DNA from: Chiloscyllium plagiosum
Lineage: Eukaryota
Reading direction: 5' to 3'
Assembly: GCF_004010195.1 (NCBI RefSeq)
Contig: NC_057719.1
Span: forward strand, 7,843,974 to 7,894,693
Length of the DNA: 50,720 nucleotides
Shown here: positions 1,202 through 46,860 of the stretch, piece by piece
Layout of the letters: each line of letters begins with the position of its first letter
How positions within the stretch are numbered: the stretch's first letter is position 1
Position numbers and translations under genes: made by a program
Notes under the pieces: model-generated
The model's database searches: none
Told to the model about the DNA's origin: nothing
The model's input: only the letters and a program-made list of their open reading frames with translations

Positions 1202-1441
1202 CTGGATCAGTGGTGCTGGAAGAGCACAGCAATTCAGGCAGCATCCGAGGACAGGCAAAATCGACGTTTCGGGCAAAAGCCCTTCATCAGGAATAAAAGG
1301 AAAGGCTTTTATTCCTGATGAAGGGCTTTTGCCCGAAACGTCGATTTTGCCTGTCCTCGGATGCTGCCTGAATTGCTGTGCTCTTCCAGCACCACTGATC
1401 CAGAATCTGGTTTCCAGCATCTGCAGTCATTGTTTTTACCC
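1202..1441 (+). mobile_element. Palindromic PLE-derived mini-element (family A1): perfect 98-bp inverted arms plus 3' tail
   Basis: Arms 1202-1299 and 1306-1403 are exact reverse complements. 15-bp TSD cttcaatagtattta at 1187-1201 and 1442-1456. The same terminus flanks the GIY-YIG-coding element at 29757-31249. Confidence 0.9.
1315..1342 (+). ncRNA. Minimal hammerhead ribozyme motif (mirror copy on - strand at 1263-1290)
   Basis: CTGATGA-A-GGGC(TTTT)GCCC-GAAA-CG-TC: full core, 4-bp stem II, palindromic ACGT helix III, GUC site, short helix I attc/gatt. Confidence 0.78.
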
Positions 1442-2559
1442 CTTCAATAGTATTTAATTGAGTGTCAAGTTAGGGTTCGGGTTTGTGTCGGGTCATCTTG
1501 AAGTCATGAAAAGCGATGCATAAGTACAATGCTTTTTCTTTTCTTTTTCTTCATTTCCTTCAAGCTGACACTCAATACGAAACACCAGCAATAGAAATTA
1601 ATTGGTTTCAGTCTTTGAGCACGGCAATGGAAAATAGGACTGTTTTATTTGAATAGACATTGCTAATGGAGGTTGTGTGGAGGATATTTCCTTACTAGTT
1701 TGGCTGTCAGTTTTTATTAATTTGTGTCTTCATTTATGTTTTTTTTAAATTAAAGATATTGTGGAGAAACAATTGAGTTTGTAATCCTGCTGCTTTTATT
1801 TTCCATTTTGCCCTCTGCTTCAGAAGAAAGTAACCACCAGGGGTCACTTTATCTTCATTGCTGGGAGATTTGCTTCCTTTGGGCTTCTGTTGACTTATTC
1901 CAGCATTTTAATGCCCCCCCTCAAAAAAAGAAATTATCTCATACTTTTCAGTTAGTCAGCTTTTAAACAACAGTGGGAATACCTTATGAACTGACTTCTT
2001 GGGGGAAAAATGATGTGATGATACAGAATGCATATCAAATGCATGTGACATTAAATACAATGCCTTCTAAAGAAAATTGCAAAATTCCTTTTAAATACTG
2101 AACCAAATCCCAAAAGCTGTTGTGGTAAATTTTTTTTTGACAATGGTGCGTAGTTTATTAAAATGTGCTGTTATTCACCATTATGCAGTTTGAATGCAAT
2201 TGCAGAGCATTAGCTATTCAATGGAGACTTGTTCAGTAGCTTATTTAATGTTATAGCTGCATAGAATGGAATATTAATCTGTTATAAACCTTTAGCACAA
2301 TCGTACAATAAAAAAAAACTTCAGGTGTAGTATATTCTAGTAAGTGCTTCTTTTATCTTCAGTTAGAATAGGAATTTATGATCTCATATAATGAAATTAC
2401 AATAACTTTACAGCACTAATATGGCTATTTTATGAAGTAAAAAAAATCCAATAGAGAGCGCTCACTTCATTTAGAATAGCATTTTAAAAATGTCACATCT
2501 ATCTATATGGTGAAATGTATCAGAAGCCACAATTGAAGGGATGTAGTTCGTCGTAATGT

Positions 2560-2820
2560 AGGCGGAGATCACTGATAGGGAGGAACTTCAAAAGAAGAAT
2601 GATAATTAAAAATCAAGGCTTTGAGAGCTGATGTAGGCTAGTCCGAAGAGGGGGCGGACAATTGATAGAAAAGACTTGGTGTGAATGAGGATATGGGTGG
2701 CAGAGTGCTGGATGAGCTCAAGTTTGTGGAAGTTGGGAGCTGGCCAGATGGAAATTTGAACAGTAGAATCTAGAGGTAACAAAGCCATAGCTAAGGCTTC
2801 AGTGAGAGTTGAGCTTTTTC
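2560..2820 (-). mobile_element. Highly decayed L2-like LINE fragment
   Basis: Purine-rich + strand similar to the remnant at 8470-8880. Confidence 0.35.
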
Positions 2821-3624
2821 TCATTGATGGATGGTGCTAAGTGTTTCAGGTTGTCTTTTGGCCTGTTTCTCTTCCTGCTTCATTATTGCTCTGAACTATG
2901 GTTATGTTACTGGTCACAGTGTTCATTGACCTCCTGAGTTTTGTCCTTTTACCTCCAGCAAAACACCGTTTCTAAATGGTTTGCTTTTCTTGCTGGTCTG
3001 ATTTTTGTTTTGGCTCCAATTCCACTCTTCTTGGGAAGGTGGCAATTTGGTAGCTTCCTTTGACCTTTCGAACTCCTCTCATCATGAGTTTTTGCTGATG
3101 TACTCTAAGCAGCCCTGGTGATGTGGCTTCTCAAAACCACAACCAGATTTTGTGCCATAGGTATATTTCCTCATTTCTTGCTATATAACATCCTAGCAAA
3201 GTGAGACTCAAAGGGAAACGTGTGCCTTTAGTGTGGTATTCTTTCATATTTTATCTTGCAACCAGCCCTGAAGAAGCTTTTGCCAATCTTACCACTTGCA
3301 GCTTTCTCTTTCAACTCTTAGCTTTATTTATTCTGGTGTTTCTGTTCCCTTTGCTGTTGTTTTGAGTTAATAAAACTGTTTCCTTTGGTTCGAGAACTGG
3401 ACATATAAATGGAGCAGAGGTGGAGCAATTTCCCTCAAAGGAGTAGTGCTATGGGCAACTTTCCCTGTGAGTTGATGGAAATTCCTATTATACTGCGGTT
3501 GACCTTGTAACAATGAGGAAGAATTGGTGTTACACTAGGTAGTCAAATTCTGATTTCTAAACGACATTGAAAATGATCACAGCATATTATTATGGGATTC
3601 TGTGATTTTAAATTAGCACAGTCA

Positions 3625-3762
3625 GAGTCTAAGAGTGTGGTGCTGGAAAAGCACAGCATGTCAGACAGCATGTGAGAAGCAGGACAGTCGACGCATAAGC
3701 TCTTCATCAGGACCACACTCTTCGACTCTGATCTCCAGCATCTGCAGTCCTCTCTTGCTTCT
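3625..3762 (+). mobile_element. Older, internally deleted palindromic PLE mini-element
   Basis: Inverted agagtctaagagtgtggt / accacactcttcgactctg, tail atctccagcatctgcagtcc, decayed hammerhead on - strand. TSD aattagcacagtca (3611-24) vs aattagcatggtca (3763-76). Confidence 0.7.
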
Positions 3763-4301
3763 AATTAGCATGGTCATCCAATTTTGCAACTGATAGGATG
3801 GATTTGGGGAAAAATCATTCTGCAGACAACTCAAATGTCAATAGAATAATGAACTCATTGACTGTAAATATCATCATTGTAGGCAGAAATTCTCTTGGTT
3901 TGAAAATGTTCTCTCTTTAGTTTTTATTAATTCACAGTAAATCAATAGTTGACTACAGTAGGTGAGTCAAGGTGTTTTTTTATTCATGAAGCCATAAACC
4001 CCTCTTCTTTCCTCAGAACCTTGTTTGTGGGTCGTGATGTCCTTCAATCAGATTAATGCATGCTCAAAACAGCTCAGAAATTACTCTGGCAAACCTTTTC
4101 CTGGCAGTTGCCAAATCCCTTTGAATAATATAATTACTAGAGACTTCGAAACAGGAGGGAAGCCATTTAGCCTCTTAATCTCTTCTGCCATCCTTTCAGA
4201 TTACAGCTGTTCCAAATCTTAGTTCCATTTGTAGCCTCAATTCATTTTCTGGATATGGATCCTTCGACCCTAATTTATAAATGTTCAACTCATCCACCCA
4301 A

Positions 4302-4585
4302 AGAATCCCTACAGTATGGAAACAGGCCTTTCATCCCAACAAGTCCACACCGACCCTCCGAAGAGTAACCCACCCAGACTCATTCCCCTACATTTACCCC
4401 TGACTAATGTACCTAACCTGTACGTCTTGGGACTGTGGAAGGAAACCAGAGCACCTGGAGGAAACCCACGCAGACACGGGGAGAATGTGCAAACTCCACA
4501 CAGACAGTCACCCAAGCCTGGATTTGAATCCAGGTCCCTGGTGCTGTGAGGCAACAGTGCTAACCACTCAGCCACCGTGCCGCCC
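4302..4585 (-). mobile_element. HE1-like tRNA-derived V-SINE
   Basis: - strand starts gggcggcacggtggctgagtggttagcac and contains the V-domain tgtgtggagtttgcacattctccccgtgtctgcgtgggtttcc. Confidence 0.9.
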
Positions 4586-11549: not shown

Positions 11550-13194
11550 TATAAGAACTAAGAGCAGGAGTAGGCCATCTGGCCCTTCGAGCATCCTCTC
11601 CGTTCAATAAGATCAAGGCTGATCATTTTGTGGACTCAGCTCCACTTACCCACCCTCTCATCGTATCCCTTAATTCCTTTGCTGTTCAAAAATATCTATT
11701 TTAGCTTTAAAAACATTTACTGAAGTAGCGTCAACTACGTCACTGGCCAGGGAATTCCACAGATTCACAACCCTCTGGGTGAAGAAGTTCCTTCTCAATT
11801 CAGTCCTAAATCTGCTCCCCCTAATTTTGAGGCTATGCCCTCTTGTCCTAGTTTCACCCGCCAGTGGAAACATCCTCTCTACTTCTATCTTATCTATTCC
11901 TTTCAAAATTTTATATGTTCCTATAAGATCTCCCCATATTCTTCTGAATTCTAAAGAATATAATCCCTGTTCTTGTGTCCTTCTCATAAGCCAACCCCAA
12001 CAACTCCAGAATCAACCTAGTGAACCTTCTCTGTACCCCCTCTAATACCAGCAATAAGGAGACAAAAACTGCACCTAGTACTCCAGCAGGGCTCACCAGC
12101 ACCTTGTACAGCTGCAACATAATCTCCCTCTAGCAATGAAGGACAGAATTCCATTTACCTTCCTAATTGAATGTTGTACCTGCAGACCAACCTTCTGTGA
12201 TTCATGCATAAGGATACCCAGGTCCCTCCGCATAGCAGCATACTGCAACTTTTTACCATACAAGTAAAAGTCCTTTTTACTGTTACTCCTACCAAAACGG
12301 ATGACTTCACATTTATTAACATTGTATTCCATCTGCCATACCTATGCCCACTTATTCAAAGCATCTATGTTCCTCTGCAAAGTTTCCCAGTCCTCTGCAC
12401 AATCATCTTAGTGTCATCTGCAAACTTTGACACCCTACAAGTGATTCCCAGATGGGTGGCACAGTGGTTAGCACTGCTGCCTCATAGCGCCAGACACCTG
12501 GGTTCAATTCCAGCCTTGGGCAACTAACTGTGTGGAGTTTGCACATTCTCCCCGTGTCTGTGTGGGTTTCCTCCCACAGTCCAAAAATGTGCAGGTTAGG
12601 TGAATTGGCCATGCTAAATTGCCCATAGTGTTAGGTGTAGAGGTAAATGTAGGGGGTTGCTCTTCAGAGGGTTGGTGTGGACTTGTTGGGGCGAAGGGCA
12701 TGTTTCCACACTGTAAGTAATCTAATCTGTATAAATTGTTAATAATTGTGGTCCCAACACAGATCACTGAGGCATATCATTAGTTACTGCTTGCCAACCA
12801 GAGTAGTATTCATTTATCCCCACTCTTTGTTTCCTGTTAGTCAACCAATCCTCTATCCATACTTATATTTTACCTGTAATGCCATGCATCTTTATCTTAT
12901 GCAGCAGCCTCTTGTACGGCACCTTGTCGGAGGCCTTATGGAAATCTAGGTATACCACATCCACTGGGTCCCTGTTGTCCACCTTGCTCGTACTGTCTTC
13001 ATAGAATTCCAAAAGATTTGTTGAGCATAACCTACCCTTAATGAACCCATGCTGCATCTGCCCAATGGGATAATTTCTATCTAGATGCCTTGCTATTTCT
13101 TCCTTGATGATAGACTCAAGCACCTTCCCCACTACAGAAGTTAAACTAACCAGTTTATAGTTCCCCATCTTTTGTCTACCTCCCTTTTTTAAAC
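11550..13194 (-). mobile_element. CR1 LINE (RT to 3' end), split by a SINE; continues at 14921-15315
   Basis: NYKLVSLTSVVGKVLESII...QHGFIKGRLCSTNLLEFYE...VDVVYLDFHKA and RGHSLKI...RNFFTQRVVNLWNSL motifs; frameshifted. Confidence 0.92.
12454..12728 (+). mobile_element. HE1-like V-SINE nested in CR1
   Basis: tRNA-like head with B-box ggttcaattcc, V-domain, (aatct)n tail. Confidence 0.9.
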
Positions 13195-14918
13195 ATAGAA
13201 CATAAAAAAGTGCAGCACAGAACAGGCCCATTGGCCCATGATGTTGTGCCGAGGTTTAATCCTAATGTAAAATATAATAACAACCTAAGCACCCCTCAAC
13301 TCATTGCTCTCCAGGTGCCTGTCCAGCAGTCACTTAAATGTCCCTAATGATTCTGCTTCCACCATCACCGCTGGCAACGCATTCCATGCATTCACAACTC
13401 TCTGCGTAAAGAATCTACCTCTGACGTCTCCTCTATACCTTTCCCCTAATATCTTAAAGCTGTGACCGCTCATACCTGTCAGTCCTGCCCTGGGGAAAAG
13501 TCTCTGGCTATTGACTCTATCTGTTCCTCTCATTATCTTATATTCCTCGATGAGGTCTCCTCTCTTCCTCCTTCTCTCCAGAGAGAAAAGTCTGAGCTTA
13601 TTCAACCTTTCTTCATAAGACAAGCCCTCCAGTCCAGGCAGCATCCTGGTATACCTTCTTTGCACCCTCTCCAAAGCCTCTATATCTTTCTTATAGTAGG
13701 GCGACCAGAACTGGACACAATTTTCCAAGTGTGGTCTCACCAGGGACTTGTAGAGCTGTAGCAAAATGTCGCGGCTCTTAAACTCGATCCCACTGTTAAT
13801 GAAACCCAAAAACACCATATGCTTTCTTAACAACCCTATCCACTTGGGTGGCAACTTTGAGAGATCTATGTATTTGCACACCCAGATCCCTCTGTTCCTC
13901 CACACTGCCAAGAATCCTGTCTTTAATCCTATATTTAGTATTCCAAAATGCATCACTTTGCATTTATCCAGGTTGAACTCCATCTGCCATTTCTCAACCC
14001 AGCTCTGCATCCTGTCTATGTTGCGCTGCAACCTGCAATAGCCCTCGAAACTATTGACGACACCTCCAACTTTTGTGTCATCTGCAAATTTACTAACCCA
14101 CCCCTCAACCTCCTCGTCCAAGTCATTTATAAAAACTACAAAGAGCAGAGGGCCAAGAACAGAGCCTTGCAGGACCCCACTCAACATTGAGGAGAAAGTG
14201 AGGTCTGCAGATGCTGGAGATCAAAGTTGAAACTTTATTGCTGGAACAGCACAGCAGGTCAGGCAGCATCCAGGGAACAGGAGATTCAACGTTTCGGGCA
14301 CAGGCCCTTCTTCAACATTGACCTCCAGGCAGAATACTTTCCATCTACAGCCACTCTCTGCCTTCTGTCAGCCAACCAATTCTGAATCCAGAAAGCCAAA
14401 TCTCCCTGTATCCCATACTTCCTGACTTTATGAATGAGCCCACCATGGGAAACCTTACCAAATGCCTTGCTGATGAAGTCCATATACACCACATCCACTG
14501 CTCGACTGTCGTCGACCTGTCTTGACACCTCCTCACAGAACTCAATAAGATTTGTGAGGCATGACATGCCCCTCACAAGGCTATGCTGACTGCCTTTAAT
14601 CACACTATGCTTTGTCAAATAGTCATAGATCCTATCCCTCAGAATTCTTTCCAAACCTTTGCTGACCACAGATGTAAGACTGATTGGTCTGTAATTGCCT
14701 GGGATTTCCCTATTACCCTTCTTGAAAAGAGGAACAACATTCGCCTCCTTCTAATCCTCTGGTACGACCACCATGGAGAGTGAGGAGGCAAATATCCTCG
14801 CCAGTGGTTTAGCAAACCCCTTTCTCGCTTCCCGGAGCAACCTAGGATAAATCTGGTCTGGCCCTGGTGTCTTATCAATCTTAATGTTTTCCAAGATTTC
14901 CAGCACATCAACTTCATT
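13195..14918 (-). mobile_element. Younger 5'-truncated CR1 LINE nested in the older CR1
   Basis: SGVLQGSVLGPLLFVVFINDL...SKFADDTK RT motifs; closely similar to 19651-21685. Confidence 0.95.
14191..14311 (-). mobile_element. Solo PLE terminus (family A2), truncated within the hammerhead core
   Basis: 10-bp TSD tcaacattga at 14181-90 and 14312-21. - strand reads TGAAGAAGGGCCTGTGCCCGAAACGTTGAAT. The paralogous CR1 near 20701-20725 lacks the insert. Confidence 0.88.
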
Positions 14919-15344: not shown

Positions 15345-15670
15345 GTGAGAGTGTGGTGCTGAAAACGTTTCGGGCAGGAGCCCTTCATCAGGAATGAGGC
15401 TTTTGGGCCCGTCTGTGGGGGGGCTGGAGCTGAAAGATAAATGGAGGGGGTGGGGCTAGGGCTGGGGGGTGAAGGTAGCTGGAAATGTGATAGGTAGATG
15501 AAGGTGGGGGGAAGGGAAGGTGATAGGTTGGCGAGGAGGGTGGAGTGGATAGGTGGGGAGGAAGGTGGACAGGTCAAGAGGGCGGTGCCAAGTTGGAGGC
15601 TTGGGAACTGGGATAAGGTAGGGGAGGGGAAATGAAGGAACTGGTGAAATCCAGTCCTCACTTTCTCCTT
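15345..15670. mobile_element. Rearranged PLE terminal fragment with - strand hammerhead at 15364-15391
   Basis: - strand CTGATGAAGGGCTCCTGCCCGAAACGTT, C-rich PLE 3' region on - strand, + strand tail cagtcctcactttctcc. Confidence 0.7.
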
Positions 15671-15747
15671 CTAATCTGAGACTGACCCTGGTTCTAATTG
15701 CCCAATCAGGGAAAACATTCTCTCATCATCTAGTCTGTCCAACCCAG

Positions 15748-15950
15748 TCACACAACAGCAGGTTATAGTCCAACAGGTTTAATTGGAAGCACACTAGCTT
15801 GCGGAGCGACGCTCCTTCATCAATCACCTGATGAAGGAGCGTCACTCCGAAAGCTAGTGTGCTTCCAATTAAATCTGTTGGACTATAACCTGGTGTTGTG
15901 TGATTTTTAACTTTGTACACCCCAGTCCAACACCGGCATCTCCGAATCAT
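15748..15950 (+). mobile_element. Palindromic mini-element of a second family (B), probably PLE-derived, inserted in a CR1 remnant
   Basis: About 75-bp inverted arms (15748-15822 / 15829-15903) plus a unique tail; same architecture as family A. No clear TSD. Confidence 0.78.
15828..15856 (+). ncRNA. Minimal hammerhead ribozyme motif, family B
   Basis: cac-CTGATGA-A-GGAG(CGTCA)CTCC-GAAA-GC-TA-gtg: helix I cac/gtg, palindromic AGCT helix III, CUA site. Confidence 0.75.
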
Positions 15951-19650: not shown

Positions 19651-21685
19651 TAGATAGAACATAGAACGTAGAACATAGAACATAGAAAGATACAGCACAG
19701 AACAGGCACTTTGGCCCACGATGTTGTGCTGAGATTTAATCCTAACGTAAAATATAGTAACTTAACCTACGCACCCCTCAACCCACAGCTATCCATGTGC
19801 CTGTCCAGCAGTCACTTAAATAGCTATCCATGTGCCTGTCCAGCAGTCACTTAAATGCCCCCAATGACTTTGCTTCCACCACCACAGCTGGCAACACATT
19901 CCATGCATTCACAACTCACTGCGTAAAGAATCTACCTCTGACGTCTCCTTTATACCTTCCTCCTAATATCTTCAAACTATGATCCCTCGTACCAGTCAAT
20001 CCTGTCCTGGGGAAAAGTGTCTGGCTATTGACTCTATCTATTCCTTTCATTATCTTGTATACCTCGATCAGATCTCCTCTCTTCCTCCTTCTCTCCAGAG
20101 AGAAAAGTCCAAGCTTATTCAACCTTTCTTCATAAGGCAAGCCCTTCAGTCCAGATAGCATCCTGGTAAACCTTCTTTGCACCCTCTCCAAAGCCTCTGT
20201 ATCTTTCCCATAGTAGGGCGACCAGAACTGGACACAATATTCCAAGTGTGGTCTCACCAGGACTTGTAGAGCTGTAGCAAAACCTCGTGGCTCTTAAATT
20301 CGATCCCACTGTTAATGAAAGTCAAAACACCATATGCTTTCTTAACAACCCTATCCACTTGGGTGGCAACTTTGAGAGATCTATGTACTTGCACACCTAG
20401 ATCCCTCTGTTCCTCCACACTGCCAAGAATCCTGTCTTTAATCCTATATTCAGCATTCGAGTTCAACCTTCCAAAATGCATCACTTTGCATTTATCCAGG
20501 TTGAACTCCATCTGCCATTTCTCAGCCCAGGTCTGCATCCTGTCTATGTCGCGTTGCAGCCTGCAGTAGCCCTGTGCACTATCGACGACACCTCCAACCT
20601 TTGTGTCATCTGCAAATTTACTAAGGCACCCCTCAACCTCCTCGTCCACGTAATTTATAAAAACTATGAAGAGTAGAGGCCCAAGAACAGAGCCCTGCGG
20701 GACCCCACTCAACACTGACCTCCAGGCAGAATACTTTCCATTTACAACCACTCTCTGCCTTCTGCCAGCCAGCCAATTCTGAATCCAGAAAGCCAAATCT
20801 CCCTGTATCCCATACTTCCTAACTTTATGAATGTGCCTACCATGGGGAACCTTATCAAATGCCTTGCTGAAGTCCATATACACCACATCCACTGCTCGAC
20901 CGTCGTCGACCTATCTTGACACCTCCTCAAAGAACTCAATAAGATTTGTGAGGCATGACGTGCCCCTCACAAAGCCATGACTATGCTTTTCCAAATAGTC
21001 ATAAATCCTATCCCTCAGAATTCTTTCCACAACTTTGCTGACCACAGATGTAAGACTGACTGGTCTGTAATTGCCAGGGATTTCCCTATTACCCTTCTTG
21101 AAAAGACAAACAACATTTGCCTCCTTCCAAATCTCCGGTACGACTCCTGTGGAGAGTGAGGAGGCAAATATCCTCGCCAGCGGCTTAGCAACCTCCTTTC
21201 TCATTTCCTGGAGCAGCCTAGGATAAATCTGGTCTGGCCCTGGGGACTTATCAATCTTAATGTTTTCCAAAATTTCTAGGACATCAACTTCATCAATCTT
21301 GAACTGGTCAATACTGTATCACAGCTCCTCTAAGTTTTCATTTACAACAAGTTCCCTTTCCTTGGTGAAAACTGAAGCAAAAAACTCATTTAGGGCTTCC
21401 CTATCGGCTCGGACTCCGCGCACAAGTTCCCTCCGCTATCCCTGATTGGCCCTACCTTCTCCCTGATCATTCTCTCATTCCTCACGTATGAGTGAAATGC
21501 CTTTGGGTTCTCCCTAATGCTTCTTGCCAAGCCTTTTTCGTGCCCCGCTCCTGGCTCTCCTTAGTCCATTTCTGAGCTCCTTCCTAGTGAGCCTGTAATC
21601 CTCTAAAGCTGTGCTAGATCCTTGCTTCCTCCACCTTAAATAAGCTGCCTTCTTCCTTTTGACGAGAAGATATTGATACCTTGAT
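19651..21685 (-). mobile_element. Young 5'-truncated CR1 LINE, about 2 kb
   Basis: Near-continuous ORF2 (KSPGPDQIYPR, NYRPVSLTSVV, DFSKAFDKVPH, GVPQGSVLGP, KFADDTK); (tagaaca)n tail at 19651-19689. Confidence 0.96.
19787..19856. repeat. Perfect 35-bp tandem duplication inside CR1
   Basis: agctatccatgtgcctgtccagcagtcacttaaat occurs twice. Confidence 0.95.
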
Positions 21686-26250: not shown

Positions 26251-26415
26251 ACCTACTCTGCCGATTCAAATATATGTTAATTATATTAGTAATTACTAAT
26301 TAATTTATTTATCGTCATTACAGCGTGCACTTCCTGAAGCATTTTCGCACTGCCAGTAAGCTTTGCAACACCAATTATAACAATACTGTACTTACTATGC
26401 TGATAAACTGTAGTT

Positions 26416-27561
26416 GCTCCCACGAGGAGGTTGAACAGTTCATCCACTTCACCAACACCTTCCACCCCGACCTCAAATTCACCTGGACAGTCTCAGATTC
26501 CTCCCTCCCCTTCCTCGACCTTTCTATTTCTATCTCAGGCGACCGAATCAACACGGACATCTACTACAAACCGACCGACTCCCACAGCTACCTGGACTAC
26601 ACCTCCTCCCATCCTGCCCCCTGTAAAAACGCCATCCCATTCTCCCAATTCCTTCGACTCCACCACATCTGCTCCCAGGAGGACCAGTTCCAAAAAAGCA
26701 CATCCCAGATGACCTCCTTCTTCAAGGACCGCAATTTCACCCCCGACGTGGTCGACGATGCCCTCCACCGCATCTCTTCCACTCCCCGCTCCTCCGCCCT
26801 TGAGCCCCGCCCCTCCAACCGCCACCAGGACAGAACCCCACTGGTCCCCACCTACCACCCCACCAATCTCCATGTACAGCGCATCATCCACCGTCATNNN
26901 NNNNNNNNNNNNNNNNNNNNNNNNNNNNNNNNNNNNNNNNNNNNNNNNNNNNNNNNNNNNNNNNNNNNNNNNNNNNNNNNNNNNNNNNNNNNNNNNNNNN
27001 NNNNNNNNNNNNNNNNNNNNNNNNNNNNNNNNNNNNNNNNNNNNNNNNNNNNNNNNNNNNNNNNNNNNNNNNNNNNNNNNNNNNNNNNNNNNNNNNNNNN
27101 NNNNNNNNNNNNNNNNNNNNNNNNNNNNNNNNNNNNNNNNNNNNNNNNNNNNNNNNNNNNNNNNNNNNNNNNNNNNNNNNNNNNNNNNNNNNNNNNNNNN
27201 NNNNNNNNNNNNNNNNNNNNNNNNNNNNNNNNNNNNNNNNNNNNNNNNNNNNNNNNNNNNNNNNNNNNNNNNNNNNNNNNNNNNNNNNNNNNNNNNNNNN
27301 NNNNTCTCCGCCCCCACTCCAGTCTGACCTATCACCCTCACCTTGACCTCTTTCCACCTATCACATTTCCGACGCCCCTCCCCAAGTCCCTCCTCCACAC
27401 CTTTTATCTTAGCCTGTTGGACAAACTTTCCTCATTCCTGAAGAAGGGCTTATGCCCGAAACGTCGATTCTCCTGTTCCCTGGATGCTGCCTGACCTGCT
27501 GCGCTTTTCCAGCAACACATTTTCAGCTCTGATCTCCAGCACCTGCAGACCTCACTTTCTC
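26416..27561 (+). mobile_element. 5'-truncated Penelope-like retroelement (RT C-terminal/thumb region, gap, family A2 terminus)
   Basis: FHPDLKFTW...LPFLDLSI...TDIYYKPTDSHSYLDYTSSHP..CKNAIPFSQFLRL is a PLE RT signature. 8-bp TSD ctgtagtt at 26408-15 and 27562-69. Confidence 0.92.
27438..27465 (+). ncRNA. Minimal hammerhead ribozyme motif at the PLE terminus
   Basis: CTGAAGA-A-GGGC(TTAT)GCCC-GAAA-CG-TC. Confidence 0.78.
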
Positions 27562-28184
27562 CTGTAGTTTGTATCAATACCACTTACTGATTCATCAGCT
27601 GCTCCTGCTCCAAAAACTTGGAAATCAAATGCTGGAGGCTGATAAAGTAAAAAATGAAAATGCCACCTCTGCACTCTTCACTGAACTCCTTACTCAGCAC
27701 ACTGTACTCCTTGGTGTGTAAACGTTACTTAAAGCACCTCTTTCCCCCATGCAACAAATTTGCATTTTGGACCAAATTTCCAGAAATAATTATTCAGCCT
27801 CTGTCTTACTAGGGCAAAGTCTCTTTGAGATGGATCATGCTCCAAAATTCTTTTTTTTTTTGTAGGACTGTGATACAAACATAGAAAATACATGCAGGAA
27901 TAGGCCATTTGGTCCTTCAAGCCTGCAATACCATTCACTATGATCATAGCTGATCATGCAGTTTCAATATCCTATGCCAACTTGCCTTCCACACTGTATG
28001 ATGAGTCACTCTCTATCTTAGCTTCCCATGATTTGAACTCATGAGCTTTGAGTTTCATTTCTAGGACTCTCACCACCGTTCCTCCACTTGCCAAAATCAT
28101 AATCATTGCCTTGTTGCACTGAGAGTTCATTTCTTAACTGTCTTCTTTTTCGGCTTCATCTCATTCGTTCTTCAGGAACTTGTG

Positions 28185-29756: not shown

Positions 29757-31249
29757 CAACGAGGTAAAAACAATGACTGCAGATGCTGGAAACCAGATTC
29801 TGGATCAGTGGTGCTGGAAGAGCACAGCAATTCAGGCAGCATCCAACGAGCAGCAAAATCGACGTTTCGGGCAAAAGCCCTTCATCAGNNNNNNNNNNNN
29901 NNNNNNNNNNNNNNNNNNNNNNNNNNNNNNNNNNNNNNNNNNNNNNNNNNNNNNNNNNNNNNNNNNNNNNNNNNNNNNNNNNNNNNNNNNNNNNNNNNNN
30001 NNNNNNNNNNNNNNNNNNNNNNNNNNNNNNNNNNNNNNNNNNNNNNNNNNNNNNNNNNNNNNNNNNNNNNNNNNNNNNNNNNNNNNNNNNNNNNNNNNNN
30101 NNNNNNNNNNNNNNNNNNNNNNNNNNNNNNNNNNNNNNNNNNNNNNNNNNNNNNNNNNNNNNNNNNNNNNNNNNNNNNNNNNNNNNNNNNNNNNNNNNNN
30201 NNNNNNNNNNNNNNNNNNNNNNNNNNNNNNNNNNNNNNNNNNNNNNNNNNNNNNNNNNNNNNNNNNNNNNNNNNNNNNNNNNNNNNNNNNNNNNNNNNNN
30301 NNNNNNNNNNNNNNNNNNNNNNNNNNNNNNNNNNNNNNNNNNNNNNNNNNNNNNNNNNNNNNNNNNNNNNNNNNNNNNNNNNNNNNNNNNNNNNNNNNNN
30401 NNNNNNNNNNNNNNNNNNNNNNNNNNNNNNNNNNNNNNNNNNNNNNNNNNNNNNNNNNNNNNNNNNNNNNNNNNNNNNNNNNNNNNNNNNNNNNNNNNNN
30501 NNNNNNNNNNNNNNNNNNNNNNNNNNNNNNNNNNNNNNNNNNNNNNNNNNNNNNNNNNNNNNNNNNNNNNNNNNNNNNNNNNNNNNNNNNNNNNNNNNNN
30601 NNNNNNNNNNNNNNNNNNNNNNNNNNNNNNNNNNNNNNNNNNNNNNNNNNNNNNNNNNNNNNNNNNNNNNNNNNNNNNNNNNNNNNNNNNNNNNNNNNNN
30701 NNNNNNNNNNNNNNNNNNNNNNNNNNNNNNNNNNNNNNNNNNNNNAGAAATCTGAGTTCATCCCTTGTGGTTGGAGGGTTCCTAGGCGGAAGATGAGGCG
30801 CTCTTCCTCCAACCGTCGTGTTGCTATGGTCTGGCAATGGAGGAGTCCAAGGACCTGCATGTCCTTGGTGGAGTGGGAGGGGGAGTTGAAGTGTTGAGCC
30901 ATGGGGTGGTTGGGTTGGTTGGTCCGGGTGTCCCAGAGATGTTCTCTGAACCGTTCCGCAAGTAGGCGGCCTGTCTCCCCAATATAGAGAAGGTACAGAA
31001 GCCTGAATACATGCACCAGCTGGGTTTGAAACAGTTTCTACTCTACTGTTGTTCTTCAACCATGTCGTGAAACAAACTCGGTACTCTATGCTACTTTCTC
31101 CCCACCCCCACCCTCCTCTAGCTTATCTCTCCACGCTTCCGGCTCTCTGCCTTTATTCCTGATGAAGGGCTTTTGCCCGAAACGTCGATTTTGCTGCTCG
31201 TTGGATGCTGCCTGACTTGCTGTGCTCTTCCAGCACCACTGATTCAGAA
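29757..31249 (-). mobile_element. Penelope-like element (family A1): terminus, gap, GIY-YIG endonuclease C-terminal part (30746-30990), captured filler, inverted terminus (31081-31249)
   Basis: LYIGETGRLLAERFREHL...PMAQHFNSPSHS...RRLEEERLIFRLGTLQPQGMN. 14-bp TSD taaggatggtgaat at 29743-56 and 31250-63. Confidence 0.92.
31159..31186 (+). ncRNA. Minimal hammerhead motif (partner on - strand at 29861-29888)
   Basis: CTGATGAAGGGCTTTTGCCCGAAACGTC. Confidence 0.75.
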
Positions 31250-34200
31250 TAAGGATGGTGAATGTCTAACACACTTGAACTTGGCATTCTCGCATTGAAA
31301 ATTTATGACACTGGAGCTTTCACTTTAGTCAATTACAGTTTAATTGATGTGTGATTTATTAATCTGTACTAAAAATATTAAATTAGCTTATGGGATTTAT
31401 AAGGAGAAGTGAACTTTTCAGACTCTGATGAATAAGCATGCCTTTGAGTTGAAATAAGGATTGGTCAAACAATACATTCCAGCATTGCTTTGAATACAAT
31501 GTAAAATCAAAGGCCATGGTAGAAGTACTTCCCCAAATGTGATTCATAAGTAAGAGGGATAGAATGTCACACACACCCTCTCGAGAAAGCATTGTTGTTT
31601 AATAAAATGGTGGCTGATCCTTGATCTTAATTCCATTTTCCCTGCCAATCCCCACATTTCTTAACTCTCTTCTGAGTCCAAAACTCTCTTGATCTCAGCC
31701 TTTGATATACTCAACAACCCTCCACGGTTTGGAATTCGAAAGATTTGCAACCCTCTGAGAGAAGATAACATAAATATGAGCAATCTAGCTTTTATATGTT
31801 AATAATGACAAGTTGTCTAAAACTCAAATTGCTGTAAATTTATGATTAAAATCAAATTTTTGAGATTATCCCATAGGTTTCTTAATGGGTGTGATGTGAA
31901 TGCATTGTCATTTTCCATGAGTTGCCAATGATTCATGCAGTATTTCTACAATTCTAATGTAATCCAATTCAAAAGAACACATTGTACACTTTGGGCAATC
32001 ATTGCTATAATTGCTGTAGTTAGGCATATATATATTATTTTAAATACAAATTATGAAGAATGGATTCTTTGGAACTACAGACAATTAGCTCACAGTTGCA
32101 GACGTATTGGGGAACCGCAGTACACTGGCATTGTGTTTAAATAAAAAAAAAGTTATTTTCTGTGTTAATGGAGCTTTCAAGTTATGAAGCTTCCTCAATT
32201 TTTAAATGCAAGTAGAATATCAGAGCAATGATACTGCTGTTGCTTTTCTTTCACAAATGAACAAATTGTAATAATGTGAAATCACTGGAGGGATTATCTT
32301 TATTTTACGGCAATTGTTTCAACTGAATTTTAAAGTAATTGCCAAATAGAACTCATTGCCTATAACTTCCGGTTGGAATGAATCTAATGATGTCTGTGTT
32401 ACTTGGACCTGTTTGCACAGTTAGATTTTTAAAATGGTTTGGTGCTTTATATGTGACTTGATAATGTCTCTTGGAAGGAAATCTGGTGTCCAGCACTTGA
32501 GTGAATTAGACTCCTTAACCAATCAGATTAAAGGATTATAAAATTAGCAGTTAAAGAACTGATAGGCAAGAGTAAATTAAAATTGGCGAATTCAACGTTG
32601 TATCAGTTAGAGGAAGATAAATAGAGAGGTAATGAAAGTTTGATGAAAAATGAATCAACAAGCATTTTTTAAAAGGTTTTCTTTAATATTCTAAAATCTT
32701 TCCAACAACAACTAAAATTGGAACAAATGAGATCCACCCTTGCAATAATTAATTTATAGTGTCAGGGAGATTGGCTGGTCGTAAATACTACATCTTACTC
32801 CATTAAGACCATTCGGACTACTGCTTTTGTCTGTACCTGCTGTGCAAATATTGAAATTTCATATCATGCAATCATTTTGATGATGAGCTAGATCAATTGA
32901 TTTTGTTTTGATGAAGCTCACAGTGGAGTGGCACATTTCAGGTAGCAACCTTTGGATGTTCTCAACCTTACATTTGACCTTGTTTGAATATGCTTTGAAA
33001 TTTGTGTATAAATAATGTTGAGTGCTATCAGCTACATTGATTTTGACAACAAATTTTGAACCATAATATTAACCATGGAATGTGAATCGGCTGGAGTGGA
33101 GTTCATCTCATCAAGCATTCCCGACATCGTGTGCTCAATAAAAATTTGCAAACAAACAAGGAAACACTTTTTACAAAATAATTTTATTGTGAAAATGTTG
33201 CTGAATTTAGTAGGGGGCGGGGGAGGGGGTGAGTTGGGAATCTTAGTGGATGGAAATGGAACAGTTCTAGTACTTGATCATTGTTCACTTCCAGGCTGGG
33301 AAAGCTACTGCAACTCTACGTCAACACTGCTTTACAGCCCTGACCTCTTGAAAATGCTTTGCTACACCACAGACACTTATGTACACAACCATCTAGTGCT
33401 CCTACTGAATGATAGTGCCATTAATGACAATTGGGTGCATTTCATCAGACGTATGGCAACAATAGCAACTGGGTTGAAAACTGCCCAAATTCAATCCAAA
33501 TTCAAATCAAACCGGTAGACTGAAGAGACGCTCTTGTCTCAATCCGTCTAGACTTGATTCAATCCCATGCCTCCAAGAAAAGGATTGTGTCTAGCTGACT
33601 CATGTACTTTAATATTTATTTTCCCATCAGGTTTATTCCTAAAAGTGCAGAATGTGATTTTCATCAGGGAATATTAGTCAACTAATTGGTTGTCTCTAAA
33701 TGCCTTCTGAAGTGTTCTCAGCAGAATGTGAACTGTCAAAAGAATCATTGCAATGGCAACTTGGATTTATGTAGCACCTTTAATGTTAACACAAGGTTCC
33801 AAGGTGCTATGAAGCAGAAATGCCGTCATCGCTGTCTTGTATGTGTTTTGAGATGCTTAAAAACAAATTGGTAGCTTTGTCTAAAATGCAAGAATTTTTT
33901 AATGCATTTTTTAAAAAACTCAATATAGAGTTATATACTCTTATAGTTAGAACTTGAAAATCCTCCATTTCTGTGTAACTGTTCTGCCAGATGCTTTTTA
34001 TGAATTTCAAAATAGCCATTTTTTATTTCAAAATAAGGATATGATACTGGCCTGAAATAGACAACCTGTTAAAGTTGTGGTCTGACGTCAACAGTTTGAG
34101 TAGGCACAGTGGTCCTAGATTTTTCTGTTGAGAGAAGTGTATTATGAGGGGGGAACCAGTCAAGTCAAAAAGAAAGATCAGCAGTGCTCTGAACCACAGA

Positions 34201-38424: not shown

Positions 38425-38967
38425 TTTTCTGGATCGGTGGTGCTGGAAGAGCACAGCAATTCAGGCAGTATCCGACGAGCAGCAAAATCGACGTTTCGGG
38501 CAAAAGCCCTTCATCAGGAATAAAGGCAGAGAGCCTGAAGCGTGGAGAGATAAGCTAGAGGAGGGTGGAGGTGGGGAGAAAGTAGCAATGCGCCAGCACC
38601 TAACCTCTCTACAATCTGCCCTTTAAACCAGCAGAGTTCGGACCCGAACAGGACAAACAGTACAGACTACAGATTCAAAAACACCATCAACAGTTCTCCT
38701 TCAAGATCCTTCGCTCCACGCTTGCAGCAATGCGCCGGCACCTAACCTCTCTACAGTCTGCCGTACTCTATGCTACTTTCTCCCCATCCCCACCCTCCTC
38801 TAGCTTATCTCTCCACGCTTCAGGCTCTCTGCCTTTATTCCTGATGAAGGGCTTTTGCCTGAAACGTCGATTTTGCTGCTCGTCGGATGCTGCCTGAATT
38901 GCTGTGCTCTTCCAGCATCACTGATCCAGAATCTGGTTTCCAGCATCTGCACTCATTGTTTTTACGT
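38425..38967 (+). mobile_element. Palindromic PLE element (A1) with about 160-bp arms and a 175-bp central filler
   Basis: Inverted arms, hammerheads at 38490-38517 (-) and 38841-38868 (+). TSD cctatcttactc at 38411-22 and 38968-79. Confidence 0.9.
38841..38868 (+). ncRNA. Minimal hammerhead motif with a G-U pair closing stem II
   Basis: CTGATGAAGGGCTTTTGCCTGAAACGTC. Confidence 0.65.
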
Positions 38968-40438
38968 CCTATCTTACTCCAGTCATTCTTTTATTTCTGA
39001 CATACCTATCAAAAGTTTTAGGGTTTTCCTTGATCCTACCTACCAATGACTTCTCATGTCCCCACCTGGCTCTTTTTAATTCTCTCTTTAGGTCTTTTCT
39101 GGCTAGCTTGTAACACTCAAGCACCCTAACTGAGCCTTCATGTCTCATCTTTATATAAGCCTCCTCCTTCCTCTTGACAAGAGATTCCACTTCTTTAGTA
39201 AACCACAGTTCCCTCTATTGACCACTTCCTCCCTCCCTGACAGGTGCATACTTATCAAGGACATGCAGTAGCTGTTCCTTGAATAAGCTGCACATTTCAA
39301 TTATAGAGTCAAAGAATCATAGAGATGTACAGCACAGAAACAGACCTCTCGGTCCAACTCATCCATGCGACCAGATATCCCAACTCAATCTAGTCCCACC
39401 TGCCAGCACCAGGCCCATATCCCTCCAAACACTCCATATTCATAAACCCATCCAGATGCCTTTTAAATATTGCAATTGTACTTCCTCTGGCAGCCCACTC
39501 CACACGCGCACCACTCTCTGTGTGAAAACGTTTTATATCTTTCCCCTCTCACCCTAAAATGATGCCCTCTAGTTCTGGACTCCCCCACCCAGTGTAAAGA
39601 CCATGTGTCCATCCCCTGCAGTTTCCTTTCCCATCCTATGCATCCTAAATCTTGCCTAATCGCCTCATAGTTGCCTTTCCCCCAGCTATATCTCTTGACC
39701 TGCGGTATATGCCTACCTCCAAATCTAACACCTGGCTTGGTTCATTACCCAGTACCAAATCCAGTGTGGCCTTGTCCCTTGTTAGTCTGTCTACATACTG
39801 TGTCAGGAAAGCCTCCTGCAAAAACTGACCCAACTAAAGTACTCAAACTATAGCGTTTCCAGTCAATTTTTGGAAAGTAACAGCTACCCTGTTACTTTCG
39901 CTCCTATCCAGAATCATCTTTGTAATCCTTTCCTCCATATCACTGGAACCTTTTGGAGCCCTATAAAAAACTCCCAACAGGGTGACCTCCTTTCCTGTTT
40001 GGAACCTCAGCCCATACTACCTCAGTAGATGAGTCATCATCAAATGTCCTTTCTGCCACTATAATACTGTCCTTAACTAACAATGCCACACCTCCCCCTC
40101 TTTTACCACCTTCACCGATCTTACTGAAACAGCTAAACCCCGGAATTTGCAACAACCATTCCTGTCCCTGCTCTATCCTTGTCTCTAAAATGGCCACAAC
40201 ATCGAAGTACCAAGTACCAACCAATGCTGCAAGTACCAAGTACCAACCCATGCCCACCTTATTCTGGATGCTCCTGGCGTTGAAGTAGATACACTTCAAA
40301 CCACCTGCTGGTATACTCCTGTGACCTTGAAACCTTATTCATGACCTCACTACTCTTAACCTCTTGTACACTGGGGCTACAATTCAGGTTCCCATCCCCC
40401 TGCTGAATTAGTTTAAAGCCTCCTGAAGAGCATTCGCA

Positions 40439-41090
40439 TAGATCCCTGAAAGTTGCCATCCAGGTTGATAGGGTTGTTAAGAAGGTGTACGGTGTATTAG
40501 TTTTTATAGGTAGAGGGATTGAGTTTTGGATCCATGAGGTCATGCTCAGCTGTACAAAACTCTGGTGCGGCCGCACTTGGAGTATTGTGTACAGTTCTGG
40601 TTGCCACATTATAGGAAATTTGGGGAAGCATTGGGAAGGGTGCAGAGGAGATTTACCAAGATGTTGCCTGCTCTGGAGGGAAGGTCTTATGAGGAATGGC
40701 TGAGGGACTTGAGGCTGTTTTCATTAGAGAGAAGAAGGTTAGGAGGTAACTTAATAGAGACATACAAGATGATCAGAGGGTTGGAGAAGGTGGACAGTGA
40801 GAGCCTTTTTCCTCGGATGGTGATGGCTAGCACAAGGGGACATAGCTTTAAATTGAGGGGTGATAGATATAGGACAGACGTCAGAGTTAGTTTCAGAGAG
40901 TTATAGGTGTGTGGAACGCACTGCCTGCAACAGTAATAGACTCACCAACATTAAGGGCATTTAAATGGTCATTGGCTAAACATATGGATGAAAATGGAAT
41001 AGTGTAGGTTAGATGGGTTTCAGATTGGTTCCACATGTTGGCGCAACATTGAGGGCCGCAGTACTGCACTGTAATGTTCTATGCTCTGTC
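40439..41090 (+). mobile_element. CR1 LINE 3' part, opposite in orientation to the adjacent 5' part
   Basis: RPHLEYCVQFWLPHY...VQRRFTKMLP...RGHSFKL; 3' UTR ends tgttctatgctct. Confidence 0.92.
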
Positions 41091-42680: not shown

Positions 42681-42859
42681 ATAACCAGATTATGTGTTGG
42701 TGTAATAATGTTGGAGATGTTCAGGGATGTGTACGCTAGGTGGATTAGCCATGGAAAATGCAGGGTTACAGGGATAGGATGGGGACGTGGGTCTGGGTGG
42801 GATGCTCTTTAGAGAGTCTGTGTGGATTTGATGGGCTGAATGGGCTGATTCTATGGTGA

Positions 42860-43085
42860 GGTATCATTTTGCATACGTAAGATGCCTCAAATAAATAGAT
42901 AATGAATAAGTAAATTGGTTTCCTTATACATTGGTCAAGGTATAAATATTGATCGGGGAGAAATTCCCTTTTATCTTTAAAACAGTGCCATGGGACCTTT
43001 TTGGTCCATCTGAGGAGTATGTAGCTAAGATTTTGGATAATGTCTCACCACCAGTGCTGCATTCTGTATTGCACCTGGACTGTAT
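42860..43085 (-). mobile_element. Decayed DeuSINE fragment (a further tail fragment at about 49500-49610)
   Basis: taaatattgatcggggagaaattccc...cagtgccatgggacctttttggtccatctgag is the reverse of the Deu-domain region. Confidence 0.5.
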
Positions 43086-43249
43086 TATCAGTCAGACTTG
43101 CAATTATATGCATAAAATCCAAAGCAATAAAAGCCCTTTTGGGATCAAGCTTTCTACTCTTCTTTGTTTACCGAGCCACTTGTCTGATTCTCAGTTTTGG
43201 GAGGATTGTGTTGCTCTGATTCCTTCACAAAGATGTCTGTTACTACAGC

Positions 43250-45170
43250 GAACAAGGGACAAACCAGGAAAGTCCAGGCCAGTTGGTCTGATCTCAGTGA
43301 TGGAGAAACTATTGGAAGAAACTCTATGGGACGGAATTAATCTGTACTTGGAAAGGCAGGGATTAATCAAGAACAGTCAGCATGGTTTTGTTAATGGATG
43401 GTCACATCTGTCAATTTGATTGAATTTTTTGAAGCGGTGATAGGTATGTAGATGAGGGCACTGCATTCGATGTAGTCAGTTTGGACTTCAGCAAGGCTTT
43501 TCATAAGATCCCATGTGGGAGACTAATAGGGAAGGTAAGAGCCCATGGGATCACAGAAAATCTGATGAATTGCATCTGAGTGGCAGGAAAACCTGAATGC
43601 AGGAAGTAAGTTTGCAGATAATATGAAAATTGGTGAGGTGGTAAATAGTAGGGAGGATAGCCTTAGATTACAGGATGGGCTAGTCAGTTGGGCTGATCAG
43701 TAATAAACAGGATTCCATCAGGACAACTGTGAGGTGATGCACTTGGGCAGGAGAAACAAGGCAAGACAATGAATGATGAATGGTAAGATCGTGGGAAGCA
43801 CCAAGGATCAGAGGGACCTTCATGTTGTCACAAAGCTGGTCCCTTTTTTCTAAAAGCTGTTCCCTTTGTCAAAGATACTGTGTCCTTGGTTTTTTTTTAG
43901 AGGGGCCATAAACTAGCTCCCGGTTCTGATTGGACTGGTTTGGTATAGGGATTAAAGGGTATTGAGAGGCCTTTTTGTTTATATGTAAACAGATGAGACT
44001 TCAAGCCAAAGTGGTCATGTTTTAGAAGTGACCTGTATAATGAAAGGGGAGTGGTCAGCTCTCTAGCTGAGAAATTCAGTTCAGACCTAGTTAGGAGTTC
44101 AACAGTGAGCTGTGTGGAAACTCACTCCCTCTTTCTGCCCTTTTAACTTCAACCTGTAAGCATCTGTTCCATTTTTTTAACTGTGTTTTAAGGGGGTTTG
44201 CTTATTGGGACTGTTGTGTACATTCGAAACAGCATAATTAAGTCTAATTTGGATAGATTGAGTTCCCTAGAGGTTCTTTATTCTGTAGTTTGTGTTTCTT
44301 TCGTAATTCTATGAATAAATTTCTGTCTGTTTTTAAAACCTAGTGGTCTACTTAGCTCACGTACTCCGGGTAATTTTCACTGTCCACTTCCTGAAATAAA
44401 TTGCAAAGTTACAGTCTGGATTGCCTGCTCAAGAATGTTTAGAGTGGTCTGGCCTAGTCCATAATATTATGCATATTCAGTGGTTTTTAAGGTAGTGAGA
44501 CAGGTAGATAAAGTGGTCCAGAAGTCATTTGGGATACTTGGCTTTATTAGTGAGGCATAGAGTTTAAGAGCAGAAATGTTATGTTGGAACTGTATAAAAC
44601 ATTGTTGAGGCCTCAGCTGTTGTGTGCAGTTCTGTAATTCACCTTTTAGGAGGAATGTAATTGCACTGGAGAGGGTTCAGAGGAGATTTATTTAGACATT
44701 GCCTTGACTGCATAATATTAGTTATGAAGAGAGAGAGAGAAAGAAATTGGATAGACTGGGGTTGTTTACCTCAGAGCACTGGAGGCTGAGGTGGAACATG
44801 ACTGAGATGTATAAAACAATGAGGAGCATTAATAGTATAGACAGAAACTTTTTCTCTTCACAGAGGGACCAATGACCAGGTGTTATAGATTTTAAGATAA
44901 GGGGCAAAAGCTTTAGAGGAGATGTAAGGAGGAACTTTTTTCACCCAGAGGATGGTGGGAATCTGGAATTCACTGCCTGTAAGGGTGGCAGAAGCAGAAA
45001 CCCTCATAACATTTAGGAAGTATTTAGATGTGGGATGATGCCAAGGCATGCAAGGCTATGGGCCCAGTGTTAGAAAATGGGATTAGAATTGTTAGGTGGT
45101 TGTTTTGATTGGTATAGACTCAATGGGCTGAAGGATCTTTTGCTGTGCTATAGACCTGTATAATTCTCCT
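43250..45170 (+). mobile_element. Old CR1 LINE (RT to 3' end) interrupted by a 644-bp insert
   Basis: RDKPGKSRPVGLISVMEKLLE...SQHGFV, ggacttcagcaaggcttt, and the FFTQRMVGIWNSLP region. Confidence 0.88.
43823..44466 (+). mobile_element. Probable solo LTR inserted into CR1
   Basis: Non-coding insert between contiguous CR1 halves. Ends tgttgt...cataata (decayed TG..CA), TATAA at 44036, AATAAA at 44314. TSD not clear. Confidence 0.6.
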
Positions 45171-46111
45171 TTAGTTTGCACATTTCCCCTTCTCATGCGG
45201 ATTGATATGTCAGTAGGAATCTAGTCCACTTGTTCCACCTGTGGGGAGACTAGTCATATTTTTATTAGTTCTTATCTTTGGTTGTGGGAATTTTACACTT
45301 GTTGTCTACTCCTAAATTCATTGTAACCTTAAATATTGTTTACTTCAGTCGTAGTTGCACCATATATTAATTTGAAGACCAACATCAAGTCTTTAAAAGA
45401 AGTTTACTTACTCTGAAAGATCCGCTAATACAAATTTGAGGTCTTGGACTTTTCCTTCGTACATATCTGTGTTCTAGGCTAGTTACAAAGTTACTACGAC
45501 AACAGGAAATTCATCATCCTGTTGACAGCCGTCATTTGATTTAATCTGATTTCACCCAGTGAAGAGTATAAGTAAGATGATTAAGTTAGGAAGTCCTATA
45601 TGATGGAGTGTAGTACAAGCTGTTCCAGTCACAGGACATTATTTGAGCTTTTGCCAGACTTCTGTTTTAGACTCATGATTCAGAAATGGAGGTTGGGGAA
45701 ATTAAGTACATAAATAAGACACATTAAATCTGAAATAAAAAACAGCATTAGTTGTGGTTAATCATAAAATTACTGAAATTTCATCAAAGATTTATCTGGT
45801 TTGTAGTTTGAGGAGTTTCATATTGAAGTTAAGGAGCTGGAGTTTGAGCCATGGACATTGTGCAACATCAGAGAGTAGGAAAGTTACCTGGAAACTTCGC
45901 TTCAGGAGGCAGTCACTCCCTCAGACTAAACCATTCAAATTTGGTGTATGATCAGGTTAACCCGGCTTTCTGTCCACAGATGTTGCCAGACCTTCTGTGT
46001 TTTCCCAGCGATTTTCATTTTTGTTGATTGATTACTTGTTTTAAAAATATTAATGAAGTCACAGCAAAGTATGTGGTCCATTCGGTCAATAGTTGGGCTC
46101 CTGTAGTAGTA

Positions 46112-46312
46112 CTGAAAATGTGTTGCTGGAAAAGCGCAGCAGGTCAGGCAGCCTCCAAGGAGCAGGAGAATCGACGTTTCGGGCATAAGCCCTTCTTCAG
46201 GAATTGCGAAACGTTGATTCTCCTGTTCCTTGGAGGCTGCCTGACCTGTCGCTTTTCCAGCAACACATTTTCAGCTCTGATCTCCAGCATCTGCAGTCCT
46301 CACTTTCTCCTC
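46112..46312 (+). mobile_element. Palindromic PLE mini-element (A2) with an intact - strand hammerhead (46173-46200); + arm starts only at CGAAAC (46207)
   Basis: 14-bp TSD ctcctgtagtagta at 46098-111 and 46313-26; inverted arms. Confidence 0.9.
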
Positions 46313-46586
46313 CTCCTGTAGTAGTAGCTGACTACAGTGGAGGGGATGGACAATAAATCCCAGGCTTTTTTGCTTGACTGGCTTTGCTTCAGCAGCAGGG
46401 ATTGAGCACTTTGAAGCACTGTTATATGATGCAATTGGGCAGGTCTGCTAATTGTTAAAAAGAAGAATTCTGCTTGGAATGCAAACGTTATCATCTCATC
46501 AACATCTCATTGATCAATAGAACACAAGTAAACTGTAGAAAATGAAAAGGCCATTATTCATCTGAATTGGTGGTGTGTTTTTAGAG

Positions 46587-46860
46587 ATGGAAATGTGTTG
46601 CTGGAAAAGCGCAGCAGGTCAGGCAGCATCTAGGGAACAGGAGAATCGACGTTTCGGGCATTAGCCCTTCTTCAGGAATGAAGAAGGGCTAATGCCCGAA
46701 ACGTCGATTCTCCTGTTCCCTAGATGCTATTCCTGAAGAAGGGCTAATGCCCGTAACGTCGATTCTCCTGTTCCCTAGATGCTGCCTGACCTGCTGCGCT
46801 TTTCCAGCAACACATTTCCATCTCTGATCTCCAGCATCTGCAGACCTCACTTTCTCCTCA
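46587..46860 (+). mobile_element. Palindromic PLE mini-element (A2) with three hammerhead units: one on - (46648-46675) and two in tandem on + (46679-46705, 46733-46760)
   Basis: 13-bp TSD tgtgtttttagag at 46574-86 and 46861-73; internal direct repeat with a 55-bp period. Confidence 0.9.

Follow-up and report, generated by a model that had tools for sequence, protein, structure and literature searches.

Penelope-like elements (PLEs) that carry an endonuclease (EN+ PLEs) leave insertions of a characteristic form, in which an inverted, 5'-truncated copy of the pseudo-long terminal repeat (pLTR) is accompanied by a tail of 30-40 bp at one side only, as in Pen2a_Av (PMC3846280) and in the scheme of PMC8557442, where the mechanism of these inverted and tailed insertions is treated as unresolved. 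The pLTR contains an internal initiator (Inr) promoter (PMC2377424), and the minimal hammerhead ribozymes of PLEs occur mostly as single truncated copies and in some cases as pairs on opposite strands, separated by 100-700 bp (PMC4209133). For Poseidon of Anolis carolinensis, studied in vitro, both target strands are cut and extended, two internal starts of the reverse transcriptase (RT) define the tail, hammerhead cleavage is dispensable, and no RNA ends were reported at the cleavage site (Frangieh et al. 2024, PMC11167929). An expansion of PLEs has been described in the introns of the whale shark (bioRxiv 10.1101/443036), and related background is given in PMC6155905 and PMC4350176. Here, we describe a computational analysis of hammerhead-bearing repeats in a 50,720-nucleotide stretch of the genome of the shark Chiloscyllium plagiosum (contig NC_057719.1, positions 7,843,974 to 7,894,693; hereafter the window) and in the genome at large. 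These repeats are the pLTR ends of EN+ PLEs, a known class of element carrying a known minimal hammerhead, and each of their short palindromes was probably built anew from two cDNAs that ran off the capped 5' end of the RNA.

The parent element consists, in order, of an open reading frame (ORF) encoding RT and GIY-YIG domains, a pyrimidine-rich untranslated region (UTR), the hammerhead, an arm, and a 36-nt tail. With positions counted relative to core residue C3, which places the predicted cleavage site at +28, the stop codon is followed by 175 nt of pyrimidine-rich UTR and the hammerhead, the arm continues to about +90 and the tail ends at about +126. The ORF of one genomic locus (L135) encodes 749 amino acids, with a Pfam match to RVT_1 (E 1.2e-8) and a GIY-YIG match slightly under the family cut-off (E 2.9e-4, 21.5 bits against 22.6). 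The original prediction had given the repeats a PLE origin and had linked two of them to PLE coding DNA, one to an RT end and one to a GIY-YIG piece (Table 1); both statements are borne out, and the two coding fragments resemble PLE ORFs of the genome at about 90%. A search with the RT fragment at 26397 returned 70,955 first-look candidates in the genome, and Pfam searches with the two window fragments alone gave no match. At three of the 30 loci fetched with an N-terminal piece (L227, L232 and L236) a pLTR also lies 5' of the ORF, with the ATG 38 nt past the tail. Since the pLTR is then on both sides of the ORF, the transcript of such a tandem carries a pLTR at each end; no full-length single copy was seen among the loci fetched. 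A single ORF with RT plus a GIY-YIG domain at its C-terminus, together with pLTRs at both ends by way of the partial tandems, places the element among the EN+ PLEs, and it also has their optional features of a 30-40 bp tail and an inverted 5' copy. The PLE ORFs examined here contain a Cys/His cluster between RT and GIY-YIG, named as a clade feature common to Neptune and Nematis in PMC8557442. On the reverse strand of locus L131 (2990-3500), a near-intact PLE ORF opens with about four in-frame tandem copies of a 120-bp internal segment.

The genome was sampled as 149 10-kb pieces at round coordinates, comprising 1,434,319 non-N bases. A motif search, of the kind proposed genome-wide along with the original prediction, identified 112 strict hammerheads in these samples with a structure-based descriptor and 0 in the reversed sequence, which extrapolates to about 267,000 in the genome (95% interval 220,000-322,000). 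One 38-mer occurs 9,139 times in the genome and a 32-place pattern covering two subfamilies 35,084 times, and the genome may be among the richest reported in hammerhead motifs. The samples contain 303 insertion units: 101 short head-to-head palindromes, 13 long inverted pairs, and 189 singles, a class that includes short matches possibly belonging to other repeats and palindromes with a second arm of less than 25 nt. Close tail-to-tail pairs and close direct pairs were each found once. The short palindromes have a median length of 206 bp and a density of one per 14 kb, or about 240,000 by extrapolation. Thus the hairpins are a third of the units, and their role as the main product is not supported. 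Nor is a class related to miniature inverted-repeat transposable elements (MITEs) or retrozymes. That they are centred at the ribozyme was correctly predicted, at least one arm ending within -12 to +8 of C3 in 79 of the 101, and in about 31 no arm reaches C3.

The arms of these insertions stop at two fixed 3' positions, near +90 and near +126, and a palindrome joins an arm with a tail to an arm lacking it, the pair being enclosed by a single target-site duplication (TSD). In the arm census, from which self-matches were excluded and two palindromic references dropped, 92 palindromes have one tail, 1 has both and 8 have neither, against 50 with one and 22 with both expected if the arms were independent (p 6e-19). 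A TSD of 8-17 bp, most often 15 bp, bounds 60 of the 101. The junction signatures are distinct in 99 of the 101, and since they differ, the palindromes are not copies of masters; the inherited master junction of a self-propagating family is lacking.

That the hairpins form a self-propagating, non-autonomous class of the MITE or retrozyme kind, processed by their own ribozymes, was the view of the original prediction, and we regard it as very improbable. Their high number, narrow size range and conserved core would suit such a class, and PLE-derived retrozymes have been reported in one chondrichthyan (bioRxiv 10.64898/2026.07.22.740005). The arms are also transcribed from both strands within other RNAs, 93% of 1516 reads from one run continuing into unrelated sequence. 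Set against this are the individual junctions, a single close direct pair in 149 loci, the palindromes without an arm reaching C3, and the predicted folding of the RNA: read-through of a palindrome yields one sense hammerhead per strand, and that hammerhead is predicted to be locked in a hairpin of about 100 bp (-209 kcal/mol for 1202-1440). A single poly(A) library, which is ill suited to detecting circular or unit-length RNA, contained no joints or end pile-ups indicative of such molecules. MITEs have symmetric terminal inverted repeats, a fixed TSD length and a DNA-transposon parent; the label was rejected for the hairpins on account of their asymmetric ends, their variable TSD of 8-17 bp and their retroelement parent. 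A classification as non-LTR retrozymes was rejected in view of the near absence of head-to-tail tandems.

Evidence for run-off from a capped RNA comes from the 5' ends of the arms. Half of the family-1 arms (139 of 278) end within -12 to +8, at a density of 6.6 per nt compared with 0.3-1.8 elsewhere, and family 2 has the same peak centred slightly further 5'. Among singles with an abutting TSD, 11 of 17 start at -6 to -2, so that the peak is not an alignment artefact; a divergent UTR as its cause was rejected on this ground, and a splice acceptor was rejected as no shared upstream exon was seen at the loci inspected. The peak base is an A in a context resembling the general initiator consensus, at -4 in family 1 and at -8 in family 2. 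Hand counts were made of genome-wide matches with a purine before the start A. A G precedes the start in 77 of 100 matches for family 1 (the first 100 listed of 2941), in 75 of 100 for a second set (the first 100 listed of 801), and in 89 of 100 for the -8 start of family 2 (the first 100 listed of 1295), where 41% is expected. At the control position -6, G was found in 31 of 100, or 22:22 once a junction class that inflates A was removed.

It is quite unlikely that this pile-up reflects something other than a transcription start, namely a pause of the RT or a nuclease block at a folded, protein-bound hammerhead, or cleavage by the ribozyme. The peak does coincide with the 5' strand of helix I, G is also high at +37, and breaks at +28 (470) exceed those at +32 (258), with 392 at +37, these counts having been made with different filters. 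In family 2, however, the peak lies upstream of helix I, again at an initiator-like A; 5' ends number 1.75 per nt around the cleavage site, well below the 6.6 per nt counted where the ribozyme begins; and a pause would add no G. Of 30 loci fetched for a break at +28, about half are connected to the other arm by helix-I microhomology, which requires no cleavage, and several are internal variants rather than true breaks; the +28 breaks are therefore not taken as evidence for cleavage, which may still contribute. Neither the break counts, nor the arm ends, nor one poly(A) run gave a clear sign that cleavage had occurred.

A different route to the palindromes would be for a single cDNA to fold back, or for an antisense RNA to prime itself, as proposed for inverted PLE copies (PMC3846280), and to copy itself as the second arm, the endonuclease then trimming one tail. 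The near-identity of the arms, which share their loop II variant in 25 of 32 pairs and otherwise differ mostly by single transitions, would follow naturally, and short inverted repeats at the ribozyme edge and snap-back pieces at some junctions point the same way. We nevertheless consider this route unlikely. At C2:44328392-44328460 and C1:108917172-108917238 both arms end at the start plus G with one base between them; such a centre makes a loop too tight for fold-back, and two joined cDNAs fit better. Furthermore, the polarity of the extra G is that of the sense strand, arms that stand alone, whether tailed or tail-less, start at the same place, and the tail-less arm usually extends further 5' than its tailed partner (43 cases versus 10).

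Several observations weigh against two cDNAs running off a capped RNA. The cleaned -6 control (22:22) gives p 0.02 against 60:23, and the control at +37 leans to G (58 of 100; p 0.006 against -4), a confounded control that weakens the contrast. Many of the family-2 matches are TG and may reflect fold-back microhomology. In the third hammerhead family, of which there are few copies, no arms pile up at the ribozyme edge, and a start predicted at -1 failed, with 22 G among 39 matches, 36 of which resemble point mutations. Half of the arms end elsewhere, and about half of the tailed arms stop short. Some junctions show snap-back synthesis, as at 46679-46728. Finally, the 1516 RNA reads revealed no spot where many molecules begin or end, although this is a weak test, covering roughly 2% of one single-cell run on poly(A) RNA.

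Under the run-off of two cDNAs, which we favor, the start A at the 5' edge of the ribozyme would be a polymerase II start site and the extra G a copied cap; with a capped start, copying of the cap is expected to leave an extra G, and in L1 an untemplated G has been ascribed to the cap (PMC9341517). The endonuclease would make a cut staggered by about 15 nt that provides two primers, and each nick would prime reverse transcription at one of two internal starts, +126 and +90. Synthesis primed in the 5' pLTR would run off at the capped start of the RNA, having covered about 95 or 130 nt, and priming in the 3' pLTR would continue into the ORF and generate ordinary truncated copies. The two cDNA ends would then be joined via microhomology or short snap-back synthesis, a single resulting where only one arm survives. 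The RNA being copied would not have been cleaved, and the stubs would give rise to nothing further. The tail-less arm would be expected to extend further 5' if it were ahead on a shared template, and either one RNA or two could serve. The chances seem to us about even that the genome as a whole has preserved, as fossils, hundreds of thousands of intermediates of PLE integration, formed by a run-off resembling strong-stop synthesis from a capped start at the 5' edge of the ribozyme, on both strands, from two starts and on uncleaved RNA.

Three families of hammerhead share the same core and differ in stems I-III, with ACGU or AGCU as the helix III palindrome. They possess the CUGANGA and GAAA core, stem II, an extra base after A9, a palindromic helix III and an NUH triplet, and the initial description of a minimal type I hammerhead with a loop-less helix III was accurate. 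Across the majority sequences of seven family-1 subfamilies none of the 23 core positions varies, while loop II varies at 3 of its 4 positions, the adjoining downstream stretch at 6 of 16 and the sequence beyond it at 4 of 32; the core is more conserved than its flanks, as foreseen, in a comparison that is partly circular because the copies were chosen by their core. Helix I, of 4-5 bp in the minimal hammerheads of PLEs, has 4 bp and is fully paired in the CTGT subfamily and contains a U-U mismatch in TTAT, TAAT, TCAT and TTTT. The most abundant subfamilies carry this mismatch, and a subfamily can apparently succeed without having the ribozyme that is formed best. Cleavage of hammerheads as dimers has been described by Lunse et al. 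(as cited in PMC6765202); the hammerhead dimer as drawn here has predicted energies of -13.3 and -9.5 kcal/mol and is not the lowest-energy cofold. The second family (stem II GGAGC/GCTCC, helix III AGCU) accounts for 33 palindromes in the 149 samples, and the third (L037, L048, L145 and others) has a longer stem II, U as the extra base, and longer arms.

Within the window, all 13 motifs of the original prediction were recovered in place with at most two substitutions, and none occurred in 50 shuffles; their loop II variants (TTTT, TTAT, TAAT, CTGT and TCCT) were likewise as listed. The first C of the core is missing from the motifs at 14288 and 46679, those at 38841 and 46733 have one substitution each, and that at 29861 adjoins an N gap. 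Of the ten insertions, six are short hairpins, three are copies with a single arm and one is a long inverted element (Table 1), two of the hairpins, 15748-15950 and 3622-3756, having been overlooked before. They are separate insertions, as claimed; the TSDs offered in support, of 8-15 bp, were found for seven of the ten, and no convincing TSD was found at 15364, 15748 or 26397. An Rfam scan of the window matched no hammerhead family and returned only chance miRNA-like hairpins.

Table 1. Hammerhead-bearing PLE insertions in the window.
Insertion	Position	Strand	Components
Short palindrome, TTTT subfamily	1187..1456		Tail-less arm 1202-1299 (-), tailed arm 1305-1440 (+); cores 1267-1290 (-) and 1315-1338 (+); 15-bp TSD at 1187 and 1442
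Older palindrome	3622..3756		Tail-less arm (-) lacking part of the core; tailed arm (+), short; TSD of 8 bp
Single tailed arm, CTGT subfamily	14189..14314	-	Starts at +1 (no C3); 10-bp TSD
Old TCCT copy with pyrimidine-rich 3' UTR	15364..15672	-	Core at 15368-15391; partial deletion of the downstream arm; approximate boundaries
Palindrome, second hammerhead family	15748..15950		Complete core 15828 (+); tail on + arm; stem II GGAGC/GCTCC, helix III AGCU
5'-truncated PLE	26397..27563	+	RT C-terminal coding 26397-26897, N gap, 3' UTR, hammerhead 27438, tail end 27563
Long inverted insertion	29762..31250		Tailed arm (-) 29762-29888, N gap, GIY-YIG piece (-) ~30747-31000, tail-less inverted arm (+) 31081-31250; 14-bp TSD
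Inverted pair with longer arms	38427..38968		5' ends -70 and -78; encloses N-terminal piece of PLE ORF; 12-bp TSD
Palindrome	46112..46311		Tail-less arm (-) ends exactly at -4; tailed arm (+) from +19; 14-bp TSD
Palindrome, TAAT subfamily	46583..46858		Tail-less arm (-); snap-back piece 46679-46728 (50 nt); tailed arm (+) starts at -4 (46729); 13-bp TSD

In the tandem formed by the motifs at 46679 and 46733 the first core is incomplete, and short templated duplications resembling this snap-back piece are present at many junctions in the genome. At 38588-38762 in the window and at loci L218 and L216, pieces of the ORF N-terminus lie captured between arms and inverted pairs of ORF-internal sequence occur, which suggests template switching within the element. 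The window additionally contains many decayed RT fragments of the long interspersed nuclear element type (at 11670-14750, 19916-21318, 40538-40906 and 42946-43419), which resemble CR1/L2 elements, and the PLE stub at 14189 sits within one of them.

The value of these observations lies in end statistics from which a specific model of how PLEs integrate can be drawn and tested; the proposal of a new element class does not hold. The exact predictions that follow are the start base in two families, two RT starts, a stagger of about 15 nt, the involvement of both strands, and a template that has not been cleaved. If the model is true, run-off would account for the pLTR inversion and the tail on one side only in all EN+ PLEs, and the conserved hammerhead would serve less to cut the template than to provide a fold for the binding of protein or the pairing of RNA. 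Some 240,000 perfect hairpins of 150-250 bp would also bring much double-stranded RNA into the transcripts of the host.

The literature searched, which excluded subscription papers and supplements, yielded no PLE hairpins in sharks and no run-off at a cap in PLEs. The inverted layout with a one-sided tail is already known from published PLEs, and the cap run-off step is what was not found there. Like Pen2a_Av and other EN+ PLEs, the elements described here have head-to-head inverted pLTRs, a tail at one end, a TSD, an Inr-like motif, and an ORF that starts near the pLTR. Unlike them, a third of the insertions consist of two arms only, copies number in the hundreds of thousands, and the arms have a fixed 5' site with an extra G. 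The hammerheads agree with those of Cervera and de la Pena (2014) in the extra nucleotide after A9, the G10.1-C11.1 pair and the palindromic, loop-less helix III, and like them are mostly single truncated copies with some opposite-strand pairs (PMC4209133). The text of that paper that was consulted makes no mention of sharks, although its supplements might list cartilaginous fish; it gives about 4,000 motifs for coelacanth and about 9,000 for Xenopus, compared with the approximately 270,000 extrapolated here with a different descriptor. As in Poseidon, two RT starts and both strands would be used, which for the elements of this genome is deduced from arm ends. The Poseidon ORF, in contrast, begins inside the ribozyme and that of the present element about 165 nt after C3, and the two likely belong to different clades; the available text of the Poseidon study is silent on inverted products and on run-off where the RNA starts (PMC11167929). 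The non-LTR retrozymes (Li et al. 2026, bioRxiv 10.64898/2026.07.22.740005) are likewise derived from PLE pLTRs, carry a type I hammerhead and include one Chondrichthyes genome, but they are defined as tandems in head-to-tail order whose units each contain a complete ribozyme, whereas the repeats of this shark are head-to-head pairs or singles.

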